A stretch of 59,146 nucleotides of DNA, counting the filler, from Sphacelaria rigidula (taxonomy: Eukaryota), in the NCBI GenBank assembly GCA_964200075.2. It is 10 parts of 10 records of this genome, joined end to end, with 100 filler letters (N's around TTAATTAATTAA, not from the genome) between each part and the next. Parts side by side here need not be neighbours in the genome. Positions count along the whole stretch, not along the records: positions 17,776 to 23,600 come from CAXNAA020024171.1; 9 more parts are not named here. One strand, given 5' to 3'. Made by a program: the position numbers and the translations under genes. A model generated the notes under the pieces. It was not told where the DNA came from and did not search any database. It was given only the letters and a program-made list of their open reading frames with translations. This document shows, one piece after another, positions 14,948 through 56,575 of this stretch. Each line of letters begins with the position of its first letter. Position 1 is the first letter of the stretch.

Positions 14948-16621
14948 CTAATCTTCGCCCCAGGCCGGTTTCCGTTCACGGTTAGGTGAAGGTTTTGGTG
15001 CAGGTTTGCGTCCAAAGGTTTTTGATAATACTGCTTGTTTTACTGCCTGTTTCCGATTACCTGGGGATACTGCGACCTGATGGTGTTGGCCTGGTCGGAA
15101 GGACCAAAACCGTTTAGCTACACCAGGCGAGGCGGGTTTGCGCTTCGGGTTCCGTTTCGCAGGAGCATTTTTAGCTATAGGAATACGCTTGAGTCTCCCC
15201 TCATTTTGTCGACGAAGGCGCCAATGACGTAGGGTTCGTAAGATGAACGTGGTTCCTTCCGTGGCCAACGCGATTAAGAAGTTTATGACTGCCATCGGCC
15301 CCCAAAGCTTACACCATACTCCGAAGGTGAGTATCAGGACTGCCGTAAAAGTACTCAGTACAATAAGCAAGACCGGCGGTTCAATTTCTACCATGACCAA
15401 TACAGGTCTCCTTTCTTTTCTCTCTTGTTGTTCAACTGTTCCTTCGAACCAGGATTTGTTAACTTCAACCTGGAAGGAACAGCTAGAAGTTTCACATGCC
15501 GGACGCACCGAAGTGCTCCTGAAAGATCCTAAACAGTCGCCCCCCGTTCCGTCGTATAGTGTGATCGTAACATTGCCCACGAAGAAACGAGAGTAGCTGT
15601 CGTAAACCATACTATTCAGGGCATTTGCTACATCGACAGGTTGTCCGGTAAAGGTCGGCGCTACATCGATGTCGCCGTCCCCGCTACACCTCACGTTGAC
15701 CCAATCATCGCATGACGTTGAATAGTTTAGCACGGACTTGTACTCCTCGCCTACCGACACTACTATCCCACTGCTCATTCTAATGTCTACGCGAATCGCG
15801 TCAAGGTGGCGGTCTATCTCGGTGAGATTGAATGGAGCCCACAAGCCCTCATTTGACGGAAGCATTGTACTATTCTCATCTGACCCAACACCGGTATCAT
15901 TCTCGTATGACTGAACAATCGCGTCGTTTTGGTCTTCCCTAGCCCACGTGTTCTGCCATCGCTCTGGGCAGGTGAGGTTACTACGGTCATTAACATTGGT
16001 AACTTGAACCAGCTGCTCCGCTATTTCTGACGACACTGCAATATCTTGCGTCAGAAACACAGTGACAAAGTACTTGAAGGTCAAATTTTTAGGTTGACCT
16101 TGCAAGTTGGTACCGTTCCACATCACATCAGGAATAGTAAAAAACTGATCACGAGGAATGTAGAGCAATATATTTCCCTCGTCGTACGGATGGTCATCAA
16201 TTGTGGAAAGCTCATATTCGGGTTCAACGGCGTTCTCATTTCCGTCATCGTCTATATCAATGTATCGGCCGTAAGCCGCCTCCGGAAGAAACGTAACAGT
16301 GGCCGTCATATATGCGGTTCCGTCCGCCTTGGCAATCCCATAGAATATCACGTCGCAGTCCGTGTCCTCGAAGCAGGGAAAAAACGGCTCCACGGGGGAA
16401 GCCCACACCCCTGTTTCCGCCGTGATGTTCATTGTGGCTGTCGCAGAATTAGCCTCGTCCCTGTCGTACACCACGAAGCTGAAGGAGTCATTCCCGACTA
16501 TCTGATCCTCGGGAGAGTTGGTTTCCACTGCCCAATTGAACATTTCATAAGCAACTGATGTTGACCATAACGCCTCCCACGCCACTACGGGGATATCGGA
16601 TGCCGACCCGTCGGAGTTCAC
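14948..16621 (-). CDS. Large terminal exon (557 codons) of a membrane-anchored surface glycoprotein with cadherin/bacterial-Ig-like repeats
   Basis: Pyrimidine tract plus AG|GTG acceptor at 16621 and an uninterrupted ORF to TAG. Motifs GNDSFSFVVYD..SATATMNI and VQVTNVND. The ectodomain is acidic with many N-x-S/T sequons, followed by a hydrophobic segment VLLIVLSTFTAVLILTFGVW and a Lys/Arg/Pro-rich tail. Confidence 0.85.
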   Translation of the reverse strand: MNSDGSASDIPVVAWEALWSTSVAYEMFNWAVETNSPEDQIVGNDSFSFVVYDRDEANSATATMNITAETGVWASPVEPFFPCFEDTDCDVIFYGIAKADGTAYMTATVTFLPEAAYGRYIDIDDDGNENAVEPEYELSTIDDHPYDEGNILLYIPRDQFFTIPDVMWNGTNLQGQPKNLTFKYFVTVFLTQDIAVSSEIAEQLVQVTNVNDRSNLTCPERWQNTWAREDQNDAIVQSYENDTGVGSDENSTMLPSNEGLWAPFNLTEIDRHLDAIRVDIRMSSGIVVSVGEEYKSVLNYSTSCDDWVNVRCSGDGDIDVAPTFTGQPVDVANALNSMVYDSYSRFFVGNVTITLYDGTGGDCLGSFRSTSVRPACETSSCSFQVEVNKSWFEGTVEQQERKERRPVLVMVEIEPPVLLIVLSTFTAVLILTFGVWCKLWGPMAVINFLIALATEGTTFILRTLRHWRLRRQNEGRLKRIPIAKNAPAKRNPKRKPASPGVAKRFWSFRPGQHHQVAVSPGNRKQAVKQAVLSKTFGRKPAPKPSPNRERKPAWGED

Positions 16622-17603
16622 CTTCGCCAGACGTTAGGAGAAGAAGAGATATAGAACGGGCCGAAATGTCATTCACGGTTGGTGTCATCAATACCTCCTC
16701 CCCACTATTTTGGGTGGCACATAACTACCGCGACCCGCGCTTTCATGTTTGCAACACCTGGCCCTCCATAAATGGGGTGATCCCACGATCCACATCGCAG
16801 GTATTATCGTATTAGCACACTAGCATTCCACTTTTGAAAAATGACTACGTTCTACCTCGTGGGGTTGAAAAGGCTCATTTCCAAGTGAAAACGAATATGT
16901 GAGCATCAAAGGACATTCAATTCATACCAGAAGTCTTTGTTCCATGCCCCACGGTGTTTCCTTGACGACGAAAAATGCGGTCAATGTTCCCCGAATGAAC
17001 TGTGATAGAGTTTCCCATAGGAGCAATGAGTTCTGCGTGATATGCTGATCAGATAGGATCCAGCGCAATTCGAAATGTTATCCTTCCTCAATGGTGGGCA
17101 AAAACACAAGACGGGGTCACTACGCCCAATGGAAACGTGTGACCATATGGTGACAAACTTCGGGGATTTTGCCGGATTGACAAGCTTGACGCGCACACTG
17201 TTTCCGGGTGTAGGCGCTTGATTGTATGCCCAGGACGGGTCGATTGAGAAGTTCGTCGGACGGGTCAGGGCAGAGACGTCAGAAACAGTCCCCGATGTGA
17301 TGAATCGAATATATCAACGTTTTTGTGGGATTGAGAGCCTAGGATACGATAGAAAATAAAAAAGCGATCAATTAGTAAAATGAATAATATAAGTTCTGAA
17401 ATGATTTTCCGGGCATATATACATTCTTGCCACTGAAGTCCTTGACATCAATGATTAGGACATCGGGTGTAGAGGTGAGCATACGACAGCATCACAGCCA
17501 AAGGAGAGCACGCACAGAATCAAAAGTTGATCAAGTTGAAGCGAATGAAAAAACTCACTCTCAATCAATCATGAGATCCTCAATGTCATTAGTACATTGT
17601 CAA

Positions 17604-17675: not shown

Positions 17676-17775
17676 NNNNNNNNNNNNNNNNNNNNNNNNN
17701 NNNNNNNNNNNNNNNNNNNTTAATTAATTAANNNNNNNNNNNNNNNNNNNNNNNNNNNNNNNNNNNNNNNNNNNN
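17676..17775. other. Artificial contig-joining spacer
   Basis: N44-TTAATTAATTAA-N44. Confidence 0.99.
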
Positions 17776-18205
17776 TGATGAATAACAACCCCCTAAGTTC
17801 AAATTGGATGTATCTGTTATTGCCGCAGCACCGTCCTTGCTGGCATATGTGTGTGACAGAGAACAGTAGCAGCGGTGACGGGAACATTGCCCTATTTTTT
17901 CAAAATGGTTTTCAGCGCACAATGGCACGTTCTGTCCAAAAGGAGAGGCAGAGAGAAATCGATGTTCGCGTTGGCGACAGGCAAGAAGAGACTACGGGAT
18001 TTCACCGCACGTCGATGCTCTGGCATATGAAACATGTGGCACATGCTGGTAAGATCAAGGATGCCAGTCTCTCGAGAGTTTGGTAATCGCCGAGCGGGGA
18101 CACACAAAGGGCACGGGCGAGGAGCTTCCTCTCTGTCATTGCTTCTCTCTCTGGTGATATCGTCATCGACCCGCGTGTACACCGCATTTCGTTGGGTTCA
18201 CCTAG
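17776..18205 (-). repeat. Dispersed repeat, copy 2 (homolog of 1277-1700)
   Basis: Reverse-complement similarity along its whole length. Confidence 0.85.
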
Positions 18206-20489
18206 CCAGAGTTGCTTACCCCTTGGACCGCGGTGCCCGTAGTCCATCTGGACCACGCGTGTACTTTTTTCAAGTGAATATTGATGCCGACTCAGCAGGT
18301 GACCTATTCTCGCGGTCTAACGGGTAACTCCTGCTGCGGAGGTTTGGGAAGAAAGATACTTTCGCTCTGCGTTACTCTTTCGTTTCTTCCTTGCAATAGA
18401 GAAACGTGACTTCAATCTCATTTGTCGTTTCAATCCCAAAATATAAAATCGGCTGTTAGTTCGCAAATTTGTTTTCCTGGAGCCGAGTTAGACCGCGTGT
18501 TGTCCTTATTATCCTGATATTCGCCATCAGAGGGAGTACATGTTTACCGTACGATGTGTGTCTGGCACAGGCTGGAGGACATTTCAATAGGCCAAATGGT
18601 ACATCCAACAATGGTGATATTCTGGTAGTCTGGAGACATTCCCCCAGCGTTTGGTCAGATATCAGCGCGTTTCGAATATTTTACCCTTGAACACGGGATT
18701 TTTCAAGTGGGGGGTGGTTCATATTTGGGGGATGGACAAAGTCAAACTTTGGACCGAAGAATGCCAAAACTATTTCGGGGTATCCGTACGGACCGCCATG
18801 TACTGTAAGCGGATTGTTAGATGCACGTTGGATTGAAATCTATCCGAACATCGAACAGAATCCAATCCTATATATATTTTTGTGTACATGCGTGATCTCA
18901 TAGCCTCCAGTAGTTTTCATGGGCCCCACGACGTCCCGAGCAGATCCAACGGCGAGTTATAATTGAAAAGACATGAATCTTAGAAACAAAATGCACTCAC
19001 CATTGAAACCATTGTTACACGGATGCAACAGGCGTTTTGCATTCGTGCCATCCGGTCGGATCGCAACTACAAACGATGTCCTCCCACGGACACTTTTCAT
19101 TGACTACCTCGACGTGGTCTCAGGTTCGCCGTATCTTACAGTCAACACCCACCGAGAAGGTTGCTTCCGCGGCCCGGCACTGGCTCGCGTCACTGCCCCC
19201 GCCGCCGCCGCTGAAAACCCTCCGAAACCTCGGGCGCCTATCCGACAAGTGAAGAAACAATATTTCAAAAGAATCGCTTTTGCACTTCCCGGTCCAACTT
19301 TTGACCTTGTCCACCTCCTCAAAACATCCGTCCCCCATTTGTAGAAGTTGTCAGTCGTCGGCCGGTTTCCCCGAGGGCTGTAAAGGATAGGGCCTTTACG
19401 GCGAAGATTACCGTCATGTCGGCGTCATCTAGAATGTTTGCGCCAACCGTGTTCAGTTCTGATATCCTCATCCAACAGATGTGCAATGCACTGTACTGAA
19501 AGCCTCGTTGTGTCTGCCAACAGTCTCTCGCTCTGCTCAACTTCCGGCGCTTTCCTGGCATGACACTCTGACCCTGGCGACAACAAGCATGTGCTACCAT
19601 GCACACCATGTACACGCGATACGAGCCGTGAAGTCCAAGAGAAAAGTGACCAAAGCAAATATCAGGTAACCCGACATATGAACTCACTTGTGGTTGAAGT
19701 GAAAACCAGAATAATACATTACTGTTGGTTTTCAAGGTACCCGATATGACAAAAGAGATGAAGATATTCAAGCATAGGAGCACATGTGCGCGTGTAATAC
19801 GATTCGGCAGATATGTATACGTTTTTGCGCGTGTGCACATACCAAGTTCTGTAACGAAATTGATATAACTTGCTTTCGACCGTCGCTTGTACCGCTGTTG
19901 AGAACGAAAGACATCCCTCTTCTATTTATATCTTGTAGCCGTGAAATAGAGCAGGATCGAACCAGGCCAGTAGCTCGGAAGGTGATCAGGCATCTTCGCG
20001 TTCAGGACGATTTCCCCTACGTTTGTTGTTGTATATGATTTCCCCCAACGTTGTCAGGTATTCTGTCGTTGTAGAGCAACTTCCCAAAATGTTGGCAGGT
20101 GTTCCACAAGCCTTCAGTTGTGTAAGACTGCATGTATCATGTCCGGTGAATTACGACTTGGTATTATGCGTTCAAGCTTGTCTGCTCCCATTTACCTCTT
20201 GTATCTTTTCAATGCTATATGTACTTCAGATCCATACTGCCGTACTGATGAGGAAGTCCCATGCCCTTGAATTACCTTGAGCACTAGAGTTGTAGTCGTG
20301 GCGATCCGTTTATGTAAAGCTTTTTTTCAGCAAGTGCAGGTAGTTCCTGTTCTTCCCGTTGATGTGTGACAATAGTACTTTTTCCCGAGTCGGTTTCTCC
20401 TGCAGCTGGCAGGAGAACCCTCCGGTGTTTTGCCATTTGTGCTACCGCGAAATGTTACTTCTCTCCAGAAACACCACGCGACCGAGCTG

Positions 20490-22028
20490 ATGGCCCGCGT
20501 GTCAGAACGAGAGTGCATCAACGAGGGCTGCTCAAAGCGGCCGAGGTATGGTGTACCGGGGAGCAAGAAGGCGGAGTTCTGCTCGAAGCATGCCAGGGCG
20601 GGAATGGTGAATGTGGTGAGCAGGACGTGCGGCAACGACGGCTGCTCCAGATGGCCGTTTTATGGTGTAGCGGGAAGCGAGAAGGCGGAGTTCTGCTCGA
20701 AGCACGCCAGGATAGGAATGGTTGACGTGTTGAGCAGGACGTACGGCGACAAGGACTGCTCCAGATGGCCGTCTTATAGTGTAGCGAAAAGCAAAAAGAC
20801 GGCGTTCTGCTCTCAGCATGCCAGGGCGGGAATGGTGAATATGGTAAACAGGACGTGCGGCGTCGAGGGCTGCTGCAAAAAGCCGTCGTATGGTGTAGCG
20901 GTAGGCAAGAAGGCCAAGTTCTGCTTGAAGCATGCCAGGGCGGGGATGGTTGATGTGGTGAGCAGGACGTGCGGCGACGTGGGCTGCTTCAAGATCCCCT
21001 CGTAGGGAGTAGCGGGAAGCAAGAAGGTCGAGTTGTACTCCCAGCATGCCACGGCGGGAATAGTGGATGTGGTAAACAGGACGTGCGGCGACCAGTGCTG
21101 CTCTACAAGGCCGTCGTATGGTGTAGCGGGAAGCAAGAAGGCCGAGTTCTGCTTGAAGCATCCCAGGACGGGAATGGTGAATGTGGTAAACAGGACGTGC
21201 GGCGACGAGGGCTGCTGCAAAAGGCCGTCGTATGGTGTAGCGAAAAGCAAAAAGGCGGAGTTCTGCTCTCCGCATGCCAGGGCGGGGATGGTTGATGTGG
21301 TGAACAGGACGTGCGACGACGAGGGCTGCTGCAAAAGACCGTCGTATGGTGTAGCGGGAAGCAAAAAGGCGGAGTTCTGCGCCCAGCATGCCAGGGCGGG
21401 AATGGCGGATGTGGTGAGCAGGACGTGCGGCGACGAGGGCTGCTCCCAAACCCCCTTGTATGGTGCAGCGGGAAGCAAAAAGGCGGAGTTCTGCTCTCCG
21501 CATGCCAGGACGGGAATGGTAGATGTGGTGAACAGGACGTGCAGCGACGAGGGCTGCTTCAAAGGGTCGTCTTATGGTGTAACGGGAAGCAAGAAGGCGG
21601 AGTTCTGCTCCCAGCATGCCAGGGCGGGAATGGTGGATGTGGTGAGGAAGAAATGCGGCGATGAGCGCTGCTCGAAGAAGCCGTCGTATGGTGTAGGGGG
21701 AAGCAAAAAGGCGGAGTTCTGCATCAAGCATGCCAGGGCGGGGATGGTGGATGAGGTGAGCAGGACGTGCGGCAACGACGGCTGCTCCAAAGGGCCGTTG
21801 TGCGGTGTAGCGGGAAGGGAAAAGGCGGAGTTCTGCTCGAAGCATGCCAGGGCGGGGAGGGTTCACGTGATGAGCTACAAGTCCAGCGAAGAGGGACGCT
21901 TGAAATTGGACATTCTCAATAACGGCGACCTTGATGAGGCAAAAATATGCCGACAGTATCCCACTGCGCATAAAGTAGCTACAGTGTACGACATGGAATA
22001 CCTCAGCTCTGCACACGTGGACAGATAG
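20490..22028 (+). pseudogene. EsV-1-7: EsV-1-7 cysteine-rich repeat protein: 12 x 38-aa C-x4-C-x16-C-x2-H repeats plus a degenerate 13th, with in-frame TAG at 21003-21005
   Basis: ORFs 20430-21005 and 21033-22028 are in the same frame. Period is 114 nt. Consensus RTCGDEGCSKRPSYGVAGSKKAEFCSKHARAGMVDVV is the EsV-1-7 motif of phaeoviruses and brown algae. The conserved Tyr (TAT) of repeat 5 reads TAG. The start may be ATG 20490 or the CTCCAG acceptor ending at 20468. Confidence 0.9.
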
Positions 22029-23529
22029 CACCCTGTGGGGCGCACTGTGCAGGGTCCGTACAAGGTCCTCCTCAGTCTTTGTGAAAAACCCCTGACAGTG
22101 AAATGCAAAATCTGTACCCATCGCAGCGTTTTGATAGGGTTTTCCCCAGGGTTGGATTTTCAACCCTGTGTAGGCACGTCGGCAAAGCCCTGCACAGTCA
22201 TGTGGTAGTGTTTTGGTGAAAAAACCTCAAGTGTGTTTTTTTTCGAAAATTCCAAATACTTGGGTACAAAATCTGTAAACTTATACATCTTCAATACCTT
22301 GTCGTCCTGTCCGAGGTAAATTCCTCGTCACCCGATTTGAATCGAGCGAAAAGGAATTTATTTTAGACAGCAGGACAAGCTAGATCCAAAACAGATCCTC
22401 TCCTCGCCCAATTCATTTCGGTGAAAAAAAGGATTTATTAAGAAGAGCAGAAGAAGCTGTTTAAGATCGATCCTTTTTTCGCCCATTTTTGAGATGAACG
22501 AAAAAAGGATATACTTCGAACAGCTTGTTCTGCTGCGCAAATCCCATGCACACTGGCAGAATCGGAATTTGAACAGCAGGACAAGCTCGAAATAAGTATT
22601 TACTTTTCCCTATAATTCCATCCAGAGATTGGGGGAAAATAAATTTTTACTGCGAGCAGCATCAGCTGCTGGGCAAATCTCGCATACTGCGTCGTCACCG
22701 GCACATGGGATCCGACACGCAGAAAACGTTGCTGAAAGGTATTCATCCTTTTGCCCCCCAGTCCATGTGTACATGGGCTAAAAGATGAATAGCTCTCAAC
22801 CACTTTCGCTGAATAGGGATCCCACACAGTGGATACGTGTGTATGTCCACACCTGTGCTTCGTCAGAAGCCCCTGGGAAGGTGGGAAGATGCCAGATTAT
22901 CTGGTACACCTCGTCAACCTATTTGCATTTTTCACAAAAAACCGTCTTCCCTTCTCTACCAACACGAACCATCTTTAGAAAATATCACTTAATCAATCGT
23001 ATATGAATAGTATATGTGGACCATCACTTCGCATATGTATCACCGCACACAAATCGAACATCAATTAACGCATACACCCGCCATGCAGCTATACTACCAC
23101 AACCCCGCAGCAAAGAGCACGGGTTGGGCACAGGGATATATATAGACACACATACACACTGCCGTGCGGGTGGATATGATGTATTTCTTGTTGGTGGAAA
23201 CTTGAGCACCTTCTTTCATGGCGGTCGCAACATCGCGCGCGGCGACGACATACGCGGGCGGGTGCGTATATATAGGCGGGTGCGAGGAACAATATCAACC
23301 AGCCGCGTATATTATGCATACTGCGGACGCACCGCGACATATCATATATATAGTGCAGCATACAGGCCGCGTACGATATGCTGCACGTTGTTCAAGTCCT
23401 TTTCACGTCGCACTGTGGGTAAAGAACATACATGAACACATTGTCCTGCGCTGTCTGTACTGTATATATTTCCCCTTCCCTTTCACGCCCTACTTACTGT
23501 GCTGCAGCAGCTGTGCGCGCAAATATATG

Positions 23530-23600
23530 ATAACAACAAATTGTGAGAATTGAGGTTTAACTTCGAGATGAGGCTCAAGCCTAAAACAGTGCTTTCCCCA
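23530..23600 (+). mobile_element. Truncated TAACA-type fold-back MITE end at a contig end
   Basis: Near-identical to 17604-17675. Confidence 0.75.
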
Positions 23601-23700
23601 NNNNNNNNNNNNNNNNNNNNNNNNNNNNNNNNNNNNNNNNNNNNTTAATTAATTAANNNNNNNNNNNNNNNNNNNNNNNNNNNNNNNNNNNNNNNNNNNN
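23601..23700. other. Artificial contig-joining spacer
   Basis: N44-TTAATTAATTAA-N44. Confidence 0.99.
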
Positions 23701-25340: not shown

Positions 25341-25757
25341 TAACAGACAATTCTATGAAATGAGGCTGTGCACTAATATGAGGTTGAAGCCCGAAACAGC
25401 GTTTTCCCACAATTTCAGCGATGGTGCCCAATGACGTCGTTGTCGGCCTAATGTCTCTCGATCGCGTAGATACTCTTTCAGCTCATTTTACCGACTCTGC
25501 CAGCTTACCGCCCTGACCGAAGCCGTCATTTTCCCTGCTGTCACCCCCCCTTAACAATCAGGGAAAATGACGGTTTTTGGCCAGCGCTGTAAGCTGGCAG
25601 AGTCGGTAAAATGCGCTGAAAGAGTATCTACGCGATCGAGGGACATTAGGCCGACAACGACGTCATTGGGCACCATCGCTGAAATTGTGGGGGGAAACTT
25701 GTTTTGGGCTTGAACCTCATATTAGTGTACAACCTCCTTTTATAGAATTGTCTGTTT
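25341..25757. mobile_element. Complete fold-back MITE with near-perfect arms of about 195 bp and a loop of about 20 nt
   Basis: CACAATTTCAGCGATGGTGCCCAATGACGTCGTTGTCGGCCTAATGTC..GATACTCTTTCAG..CCGTCATTTTCCCTG is mirrored at 25559-25757. Confidence 0.9.
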
Positions 25758-45409: not shown

Positions 45410-45654
45410 GACACTTTTTACGATAGCCCCCCCCCAAACCGGCTAAAAGTGTCACGAAAAAAATGGTCATACAGCGCCTGATGTTCGGGTTCAGGCTGCA
45501 TGAAGCGCCTCANNNNNNNNNNAGAACGAACCCAAGCGTGGGAATTCCCAGCTTCTCGTTGTGCCCGGCTTTTCCCATTTCGATTTACGTGAAGATTTTT
45601 GCCTCCCAAAACCATACACTTTTTTTTTTGGGGGGGGGTATCGTAGAAAGTGCC
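45410..45654 (+). mobile_element. MITE with G(A/G)CACTTT(C/T)TACGATA TIRs and 4-bp TSD ATGG; contains a 10-N gap
   Basis: ATGG|GACACTTTTTACGATAGCCCCCCCC ... GGGGGGGGTATCGTAGAAAGTGCC|ATGG. Confidence 0.75.
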
Positions 45655-55212: not shown

Positions 55213-55769
55213 GTGAGTTGATATTGTTGCCCCTGTTGAACTGTACTGTCAAGGTGTATTTTAACAAACGATGTATTGCTTGGTGATTGAATAGGATTGA
55301 AAACAGCAAAATTTCATGCGGTTTTGAGCTCGCCGCACAACCGGACGGCAGTGTATGGTACCGACCGTGCCGTCTACTCGAAGTATTTGGCGACATAATC
55401 TCTGCTTGCACACTCAGTACGACATCAGCTAATGTGCAGTTCAATCGTTCGGGCTCCAACGTCATTGACGTTTGTCCGCATGAACGAACGGCCCAGTGAC
55501 TCGGATCAATGTATGTGCACACTTGTTGTTGTCCTACCTCTTGCGCATTACTCGTACTACTGTGATTTGTTGATTATTGTGCGGCGTTACTATGTTGTAG
55601 AGTTCTGGCCAACGCCTGCAGCAGGTTGAAATGAGCATTTGCGTGTTCTATCCAAAATCATATTTCCCCCGTGGTTGCGCCTACTCCTCTATTTTCCATG
55701 CTCACCTACGCATTTATGATGTCTACGGCGCGTCCACTCGTGTCGTGTTGCGTCACCGTCGATCTCTAG

Positions 55770-56224
55770 GTACGATTCATGCATGGAAATATCTCTGGAG
55801 ATCGTGTGGAAGGTTATTCCGGAAGCATTGGTTGCATCCGCAGAGAAGACAACAGGCGGCCTGGAGTTCCTCAGCAAATGGGGCTGGTTGTACACCATAA
55901 TAGCCTCCACAACCCTGGGGGCGCTCGCCGGTCTGTCGATAAAGTACTTGGGCTTTCCCGGCGACCTACCGAACGTGATCAAGTGCGTGCACAAGCTGGG
56001 ATACGTGCCTATGAAGCAAACTCTGCCAATGATCTTCGTCAGTTTGTTCAGCATCGCGGCCGGCGGGTCTTTGGGCCCGGAGGCGCCCCTTGTGGCCATT
56101 TCCGCGTCCGCCTGTGGCTGGTTGTCCATGAAGTATTTCGATCATGACCCCGTCATGGTGCGCAAGTGCACAATAATCGGGATGTCCGCAGGACTCAGCG
56201 CTTTCTTCGGCGTGCAGCTCGGCG
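55770..56224 (+). CDS. CLC gene, exon 3
   Basis: TCTAG| acceptor and G|GTGAGC donor. Contains GGSLGPEAP (GxEGP gating-Glu motif) and GMSAGLSAFFG. Confidence 0.92.
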
Positions 56225-56575
56225 GTGAGCCCATGAATGCCAACAACTATTGTGCAAGAGTCAAATTCAGTGCGTGTCACGCTTTTATCCACGTAGTCAG
56301 CGCGGGGAGAAGGTGGACTTTCGCTCGCTCACATGTCAGAGGATTTACGCTCGTACACAGTCATCAGTACTACACCACAGACTTTTCAAAGTCTTCCCAA
56401 AAAGAGTAGCCTCACTACGGCCGTCGACGGTGATTCCCTTCTTTTCTCGCTATGACACACATGAGTCGTAACTCACAACCTACGTATGGTCAGGTTCATT
56501 CTTGTTCCGTGGTGATCGATCGACCTGGCGACGAACTTGGGTGTGGGTGATCCCGTAACCGAAGAGTCAATAAAG

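Follow-up and report, generated by a model that had tools for sequence, protein, structure and literature searches.

A probably pseudogenised EsV-1-7 array in Sphacelaria rigidula and the recurrent variable positions of its family

The EsV-1-7 family is described, in the available part of the source, as a possible novel zinc-finger class of unknown function with an expansion in brown algae, often in tandem gene arrays, and its curated members number 2018 over 31 genomes (10.1101/2024.02.19.579948). According to similarly partial texts, the Ectocarpus members carry no other Pfam domain (10.64898/2026.04.27.720984), the IMM protein is 'of unknown function' (PMC7457493) and an Ectocarpus Tc1/Mariner transposase has an N-terminal EsV-1-7 domain (PMC12477816). 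Here we describe an EsV-1-7 array of Sphacelaria rigidula, located in a stretch of 59,146 nucleotides (nt) made of 10 joined parts (the window); the part with the array, positions 17,776-23,600, is CAXNAA020024171.1. The explanation that we favour, and consider likely, is that the locus is a pseudogenised member of a Sphacelaria subfamily which displays a pattern of constant scaffold and variable spots common to the whole family. In itself the locus would be an ordinary dead paralog in a hugely expanded brown-alga family, and the useful result concerns the family.

A single tandem array was detected with Tandem Repeats Finder at positions 20521-21856 (period 114, 11.7 copies, 81% matches, 0% indels, score 1676). 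Read in phase with the ATG at 20490, it is translated into 12 consecutive in-register units of 38 amino acids (aa), in agreement with the original prediction of 12 exact-length repeats of 114 nt without indels, and the translation exactly reproduces all the hexamers and Cys3-His pairs that were listed there. The locus is a member of PF19114 (EsV_1_7_cys), as both halves of the array are matched by this Pfam model with 198.2 bits (four stretches) and 329.5 bits (eight stretches) at a cutoff of 25. The ligand set C-x4-C-x16-C-x2-H is complete in 10 of the 12 units, with units 3 and 5 each short of one Cys. Pairs of units differ at 11-32 of the 114 nt (mean 21.9), and adjacent units (mean 21.5) are no closer than distant ones. 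A hidden Markov model (HMM) built from the array units matched no other open reading frame (ORF) of at least 25 aa in the window.

This copy of the gene is broken. The asterisk in the hexamer FKIPS* of unit 5 is a genuine in-frame TAG (Table 1), and zinc ligands are lost at two of the 48 positions, Cys1 of unit 3 and Cys3 of unit 5 both being replaced by Tyr. A 168-nt contig from run X3, which belongs to a different study, spans positions 20950-21117 with 0 differences, the TAG included, so that the stop is not peculiar to this assembly. Among 8000 candidates scored, 194 relatives were found at E<=1e-3, and those that come nearest to the locus all bear the name Sphacelaria rigidula; the closest is P0001 (70% identity), followed by P0003. 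Following the array, a conserved tail is common to 15 Sphacelaria rigidula paralogs among the 170 proteins compared, with a G-x-KRKR motif in 9 of those 15 that resembles a monopartite nuclear localisation signal. At the locus a stub of the tail is left, with 78% identity to P0003 over 51 aa (21858-22010, overlapping the array end) and 70% identity to P0001 over 61 aa (21828-22010). Neither tblastn alignment extends past 22010, and the remainder of the paralog tail gave no credible tblastn match beyond this position or elsewhere in the 59-kb window. The summed word depth in run X1 rises from 137-167 at 21886-22007 to 602,073 at 22008-22068, that in run X3 is 145,133 after the same junction, and many contigs with differing left flanks end before 22009, 22010 and 22012 in four runs. 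Together, the depth jump and the differing flanks at 22009-22012 point to the border of a dispersed repeat with a very high copy number. This repeat matched no Rfam family or tRNA, and no terminal inverted repeat begins at 22010.

The pattern of substitution in the window array speaks for weak constraint: the three codon positions have nucleotide diversities of 0.18, 0.19 and 0.21 in order, the whole-array maximum-likelihood (ML) omega of 0.70 does not allow omega=1 to be rejected (p=0.086), and the ratio of nonsynonymous to synonymous divergence (pN/pS) in the scaffold is 0.62, vs 0.19-0.44 in four intact viral arrays. Several points nevertheless weigh against the loss of the gene. The decay is slight, and a truncated 171-aa product or a stop-free allele may exist; 340 codons after the TAG are still open; the window units score 59.7-81.3 bits, vs a family HMM median of 65.4; ligand loss in two of 12 units is not by itself unusual, given 24 ligand-lacking units among 478 in the family; and the X3 contig of the second study may derive from the same strain. 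The intact start codon and first units, the open downstream frame and the family-like unit scores could fit a locus that still functions, through a protein of 4.5 units ending at the TAG, a strain-specific stop polymorphism or read-through. We regard this as improbable, since the TAG sits in the very unit that has also lost its third ligand, the conserved tail is absent, the second study shows the same TAG and omega is indistinguishable from 1. Splicing out of the TAG was considered and rejected, as the contig joints have no GT..AG ends and resemble other family copies. The open downstream frame and the family-like unit scores rather suggest that the gene died recently and that most unit-to-unit variation is older than its death. 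The window copy is thus almost certainly dead, and it is very likely that the locus represents a recently pseudogenised, tail-less member of the Sphacelaria-type EsV-1-7 subfamily.

The suggested reshuffling by unequal crossing-over is plausible in a form that preserves the register, as the units are free of indels and unit 12 looks like a hybrid of P0003-like units. Unit 12 (21762-21875) resembles the front of the penultimate unit of P0003 (unit 4) and the back of its last unit (unit 5), as in-register unequal exchange would yield.

A role in alga-virus conflict had also been proposed for the array. Outside the array region (20300-22100), the window holds 74 ORFs of at least 110 aa, and none of these has a viral or transposase Pfam match, nor is there any sign among them of an integrated phaeovirus. 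The sole Pfam match above cutoff is an exon-like ORF for a voltage-gated chloride channel (CLC; PF00654, 52.2 bits, 55720-56406, plus strand), which indicates an ordinary host gene context. An origin of the array in an integrated phaeovirus or a transposon, with a part in conflict between alga and virus or within the genome, might be considered because the family is common to giant viruses (29 matches in BFVD and 24 array-bearing ORFs on viral contigs) and because of the transposase fusion in Ectocarpus (PMC12477816, partial text). Against this, the scan of viral contigs returned no close relative of the window array, the nearest relatives are the 15 cellular paralogs with a common host-type tail and the flanking ORFs are as described, so that we consider such an origin very improbable and see no support here for the proposed conflict role.

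The variation between units is best seen across the family. We aligned 478 units from 120 relatives on 38 columns, keeping those of 697 domain matches with at most three gaps. Columns C3, C8, C25, H28 and M33 are near-invariant, with the ligand columns 97-99% conserved, and P12, G15, G18, G32 and V36 show strong conservation; variability is highest in columns 9, 11, 27, 4, 30, 31, 5, 6, 16, 17 and 26. The six residues after Cys2, which had been taken to vary as a block, therefore follow the pattern x-K-x-P-x-[YF], in which positions 9, 11 and 13 are free, as claimed, but 10, 12 and 14 are conserved. The window array shows the same, with P12 retained in 11 of the 12 units, Y14 in 10 and K10 in eight; its variable sites are 9, 11 and 13, as well as 4-7, 17-18, 35 and 38. 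Entropy is at least 1 bit at 15 of the 38 positions of the window units and correlates with the family entropy (Spearman 0.58, p=1.4e-4). A second variable pair proposed between Cys3 and His is borne out at the family level, where 26 and 27 are among the most variable columns, but these positions are less prominent within arrays.

Within arrays, one position stands out. Among 43 arrays of at least five units, position 11 has the highest entropy in 13 and is among the top three in 27; where unit identity is at least 60% (27 arrays), it comes first in 10 and is among the top three in 18. It is followed by sites 4-6, 13, 9 and 2. The composition of position 11 is restricted, with 66% R/K/H/Q/N, 10% aromatic and 0.00 D/E residues in the 478 units, and the mean unit charge is +2.6. 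The combination of a constant scaffold with variable spots, as the original prediction had it, is real and recurs in independent arrays, including the viral arrays L085, L043 and L072, which display it more cleanly than the window does. It is a property of the family, inherited here from a working ancestor. A two-residue code does not emerge, as variation extends over roughly 8-16 positions that differ between arrays. The alternation of 9, 11 and 13 is the pattern that an extended segment with one exposed face would produce.

Intact arrays are available from giant viruses. A degenerate pattern of the conserved His-to-Val motif matched 90 loci on viral contigs; 24 ORFs on these contigs bear arrays, of up to 15 units, and in the 16 viral ORFs scanned with Pfam we found PF19114 only, plus PF24906 in two. 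The same type of 599-aa ORF, with 10 EsV-1-7 units and a C-terminal region of about 200 aa, is present on seven viral contigs (L007, L020, L025, L029, L041, L046 and L069); in the two scanned with Pfam (L007 and L041), the C-terminal region has a weak, sub-threshold match to AAA_18. A pattern scan of metagenomes found units in at least seven ORFs on at least five loci, two of them with a single unit. The viral arrays are clearly under purifying selection, with whole-array ML omega values of 0.32, 0.58, 0.25 and 0.095 for L085, L043, L072 and L079, respectively.

For the hot site, the null expectation of a neutral loop is that pN at a free position stays at or below scaffold pS. Position-11 pN lies above the upper bootstrap bound (95%) for scaffold pS in three of the five arrays with DNA sequence, namely the window (0.56 vs 0.35), L043 (0.64 vs 0.31) and L072 (0.66 vs 0.51), of which the latter two are intact giant-virus arrays. 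A number of results weigh against selection for diversity. Position-11 pN lies below the bound in L085 (0.45 vs 0.56) and L079 (0.60 vs 0.61); for the patch of eight residues, omega comes to 0.86 in the window, and the viral arrays give 0.28, 1.00, 0.43 and 0.15, in no case clearly above 1; and synonymous divergence at the hot codons is above that of the scaffold in all five arrays, which older divergence or escape from gene conversion would explain no less well than selection. Estimates of omega for a partition of only three codons are unstable. In the window, positive selection is not supported: neither the patch nor the rest of the array (ML omega 0.76) differs from 1, and a star-phylogeny pN/pS, a rough check that ignores shared ancestry, gives 0.59 overall and 0.61 in the patch. 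The data fit both a PRDM9-type situation, in which diversity is maintained at the hot codons while the scaffold is homogenised, and diverged loops that escape gene conversion.

Structural models were obtained with AlphaFold2 for units 6-12 plus the stub (predicted local distance difference test, pLDDT, 86-95 over the units; predicted TM-score 0.50) and for three units alone (pLDDT 89). DSSP assigns to each modelled unit two strands (14-16 and 33-35), a bridge at 24 and, at 26-28, a turn of three residues, but no helical hairpin, and the TALE/PPR-like architecture that had been suggested is therefore not what the models predict. Sequence searches of the PDB gave 0 matches for the window array and two viral ORFs, and fold searches of the PDB gave none at E<=1e-3 (Foldseek E>=1.1). 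VIA reached a best Z of 3.8 for the whole model, mostly from the last two units and the post-array helix (model residues 184-272), and 0 rows at Z>=2 for the three-unit model; the weak structural neighbours are all zinc modules (RING, B-box, ZZ and ArfGAP). BFVD returned the 29 matches at E<=1e-3, among them the Ectocarpus siliculosus virus 1 proteins EsV-1-7 and EsV-1-115 as well as marseille-, pitho-, cedrat-, klosneu- and Tetraselmis virus proteins; five are labelled 'Endonuclease' (four) or 'DNA primase' (one), labels that could not be verified. Since positions 9-11 follow ligand C8, and 26-27 are placed between ligands C25 and H28 of that zinc site, both variable spots would be expected to adjoin in space.

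From these observations a model of the intact arrays can be proposed. Intact members of the subfamily consist of an N-terminal array of 38-aa C-x4-C-x16-C-x2-H units and a conserved tail of about 170-200 aa, often with G-x-KRKR; at the present locus, the TAG in unit 5 closes the frame, two zinc ligands are gone and the high-copy repeat cuts the tail at 22010. Judging from the invariant CCCH pattern, each unit probably holds a single zinc and folds as a small knuckle-plus-hairpin module. Along the extended stretch that follows Cys2, the alternating side chains of 9, 11 and 13 would all point one way and, with 26/27 beside Cys3 and His, could form a variable, basic, non-acidic surface. Such a surface may allow each unit specific contacts to a polyanionic polymer (most likely DNA), in the way of C2H2 arrays, while in-register unequal crossing-over and gene conversion would homogenise and resize the arrays and the differences at the hot codons would persist.

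Transposases carry their DNA-binding domain at the N-terminus. DNA binding of the arrays is plausible in view of the basic units, the KRKR motif of the paralog tails and the transposase fusion with its N-terminal EsV-1-7 domain (PMC12477816, partial text). The nucleic-acid recognition raised in the original prediction is likewise plausible from the basic, non-acidic position 11, the unit charge, the tail motif and the same fusion, although this broken locus itself would not encode a working binder. That the variable basic surface of intact arrays reads nucleic acids, most likely DNA, is a tentative proposal whose prospects fall a little short of even, and a truly modular code seems unlikely. 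Two points count against this reading: no nuclease or other DNA-enzyme Pfam domain was found in 70 longer relatives or in the 16 viral ORFs, and the notion of one face derives from the i, i+2, i+4 alternation and the adjacency to the ligands.

Two other explanations of the variable sites have to be weighed against recognition of nucleic acids. Under concerted evolution, 9, 11, 13 and 26/27 could be no more than unconstrained surface residues beside the ligands, which escape gene conversion locally once they have diverged, the constrained scaffold still being homogenised, and hold neither a recognition code nor information on a ligand. The patch omega of the window, the values of at most 1 in L085, L072 and L079, the raised synonymous divergence at the hot codons in five of five arrays and the spread of variation over about 8-16 positions that differ between arrays all agree with such neutral loops, but the compositional restriction of position 11, its pN above scaffold pS in three of five arrays and the recurrence of the same hot site in algal and giant-virus arrays do not, and we hold the idea to be rather doubtful. 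Alternatively, the intact arrays might be scaffolds for protein-protein interactions, similar to RING, B-box or LIM modules, whose variable spots tune the choice of partner. In favour of this are the nature of the weak structural neighbours (best Z 3.8; Foldseek E>=1.1), zinc modules of the RING, B-box, ZZ and ArfGAP types only, and the lack of a match to any described DNA-binding domain family. These structural matches are, however, far below a meaningful level, the VIA rows fall mostly on the last two units and the helix and not on the well-modelled units, and the three-unit model gave none; moreover, the units are basic, the hot site excludes acidic residues and the transposase carries its EsV-1-7 domain at the N-terminus (PMC12477816, partial text). 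A role as protein scaffold thus appears unlikely, somewhat more so than neutral loops.

In a more far-reaching version of nucleic-acid reading, EsV-1-7 arrays would be an independent zinc-based class of modular sequence readers common to brown algae and giant viruses, in which residues 9, 11 and 13 (with 26/27) meet a few bases of DNA or RNA and arrays are rewritten by in-register exchange while selection keeps the units different, as in PRDM9/KRAB-ZNF. We regard this as speculative and unlikely; if true, a large brown-alga family that includes IMM would gain a readable specificity code. In any case, position 11, with its alternating neighbours, is the place where units that are homogenised elsewhere repeatedly differ, in algal and giant-virus arrays alike. 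As the biochemical role of the domain is described as unknown in the available parts of the literature (10.1101/2024.02.19.579948; 10.64898/2026.04.27.720984; PMC7457493; PMC12477816), the hot-site result provides specific residues, 9, 11 and 13, to question. In the literature searched, 'EsV-1-7' was not found together with 'hypervariable'; Macaisne et al. 2017 was outside this search and may already discuss conserved and variable positions.

Table 1. Features of the EsV-1-7 locus in the window, with positions counted along the whole stretch.
Feature	Position	Strand	Evidence or remark
Start codon of the former gene	20490..20492	+	Protein start encoded from this ATG can be aligned to that of P0001, the closest paralog
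Array of 12 EsV-1-7 units, 114 nt / 38 aa each, C-x4-C-x16-C-x2-H	20508..21875	+	Tandem Repeats Finder period 114, in-register translation, PF19114
Unit 3, Tyr (TAC) in place of the first zinc-ligand Cys	20742..20744	+	Column 99% Cys family-wide
In-frame TAG, position 14 of unit 5	21003..21005	+	Tyr/Phe in the family; X3 contig identical
Unit 5, Tyr (TAC) in place of the third zinc-ligand Cys	21036..21038	+	Column 98% Cys family-wide
Stub of the conserved post-array region, 45 aa, predicted helix	21876..22010	+	tblastn to paralog tails; helix at model residues 216-230
Five unrelated codons, then terminal TAG (22026-22028)	22011..22028	+	Belong to the repeat that is inserted or abuts here
Dispersed repeat of very high copy number, left edge with the first ~90 nt	22009..22100	.	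Word depth jump and loose contig ends

Elsewhere in the window, an open frame of 561 codons on the minus strand (14951-16633) has one predicted hydrophobic stretch that spans the membrane, a basic C-terminal end and no Pfam match. Two further features are likely repeat elements: an inverted duplicate pair (17802-18207 and 1268-1674; 84% identical, about 16 kb apart in the window) and a 415-nt stretch at 25342-25756 that is 88% self-complementary. Paired runs of 44 N recur about every 5925 bases (e.g. 17676-17775 and 23601-23700), with none in the array or its immediate flanks; the window contains 802 N in total, including one run of 10 N at 45513-45522.

Among known systems, the locus is closest to the EsV-1-7 family itself, as represented by Ectocarpus IMM and phaeovirus EsV-1-7, with which it shares the tandem C-x4-C-x16-C-x2-H units, the absence of other Pfam domains and the expansion in brown algae; it differs in being broken by the stop, the two ligand losses and the truncated tail. 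In contrast to the IMM lineage, it belongs to a Sphacelaria subfamily with a tail of its own, and the unique N-terminal domain of IMM is absent here. The WRKY19-type zinc finger (PF24906, cutoff 27) is matched above cutoff by P0009 (36.2 bits), L043 (83 bits) and L072 (32.5 bits), whereas three window units had no match at E<=10. The matches of L043:2770-4110, L072:3-1637 and P0009 to both models suggest that PF19114 and PF24906 describe overlapping motifs.

TALE and PPR repeats are helical hairpins arranged in a superhelix, with essentially two code residues. They share with EsV-1-7 units a length of 33-38 aa per repeat and the notion that a nearly constant repeat carries a few specificity residues, but the window array has no PPR Pfam match, and EsV-1-7 units are predicted to be made of strands and turns around a zinc site and vary at more sites. 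The arrays of PRDM9 and KRAB-ZNF proteins are tandem C2H2 zinc modules, homogenised at the DNA level, in which each unit has a few variable residues of polar or basic character and change comes about by in-register unequal exchange. The excess of position-11 pN over scaffold pS in three of five arrays is a likeness to these, while the CCCH ligands, the unit length of 38 aa and the predicted lack of a beta-beta-alpha finger set EsV-1-7 units apart, and zf-C2H2 matched neither the window array at E<=0.01 nor three of its units at E<=10. As an analogy, a C2H2 array of the PRDM9 type comes nearer to EsV-1-7 arrays than TALE or PPR.

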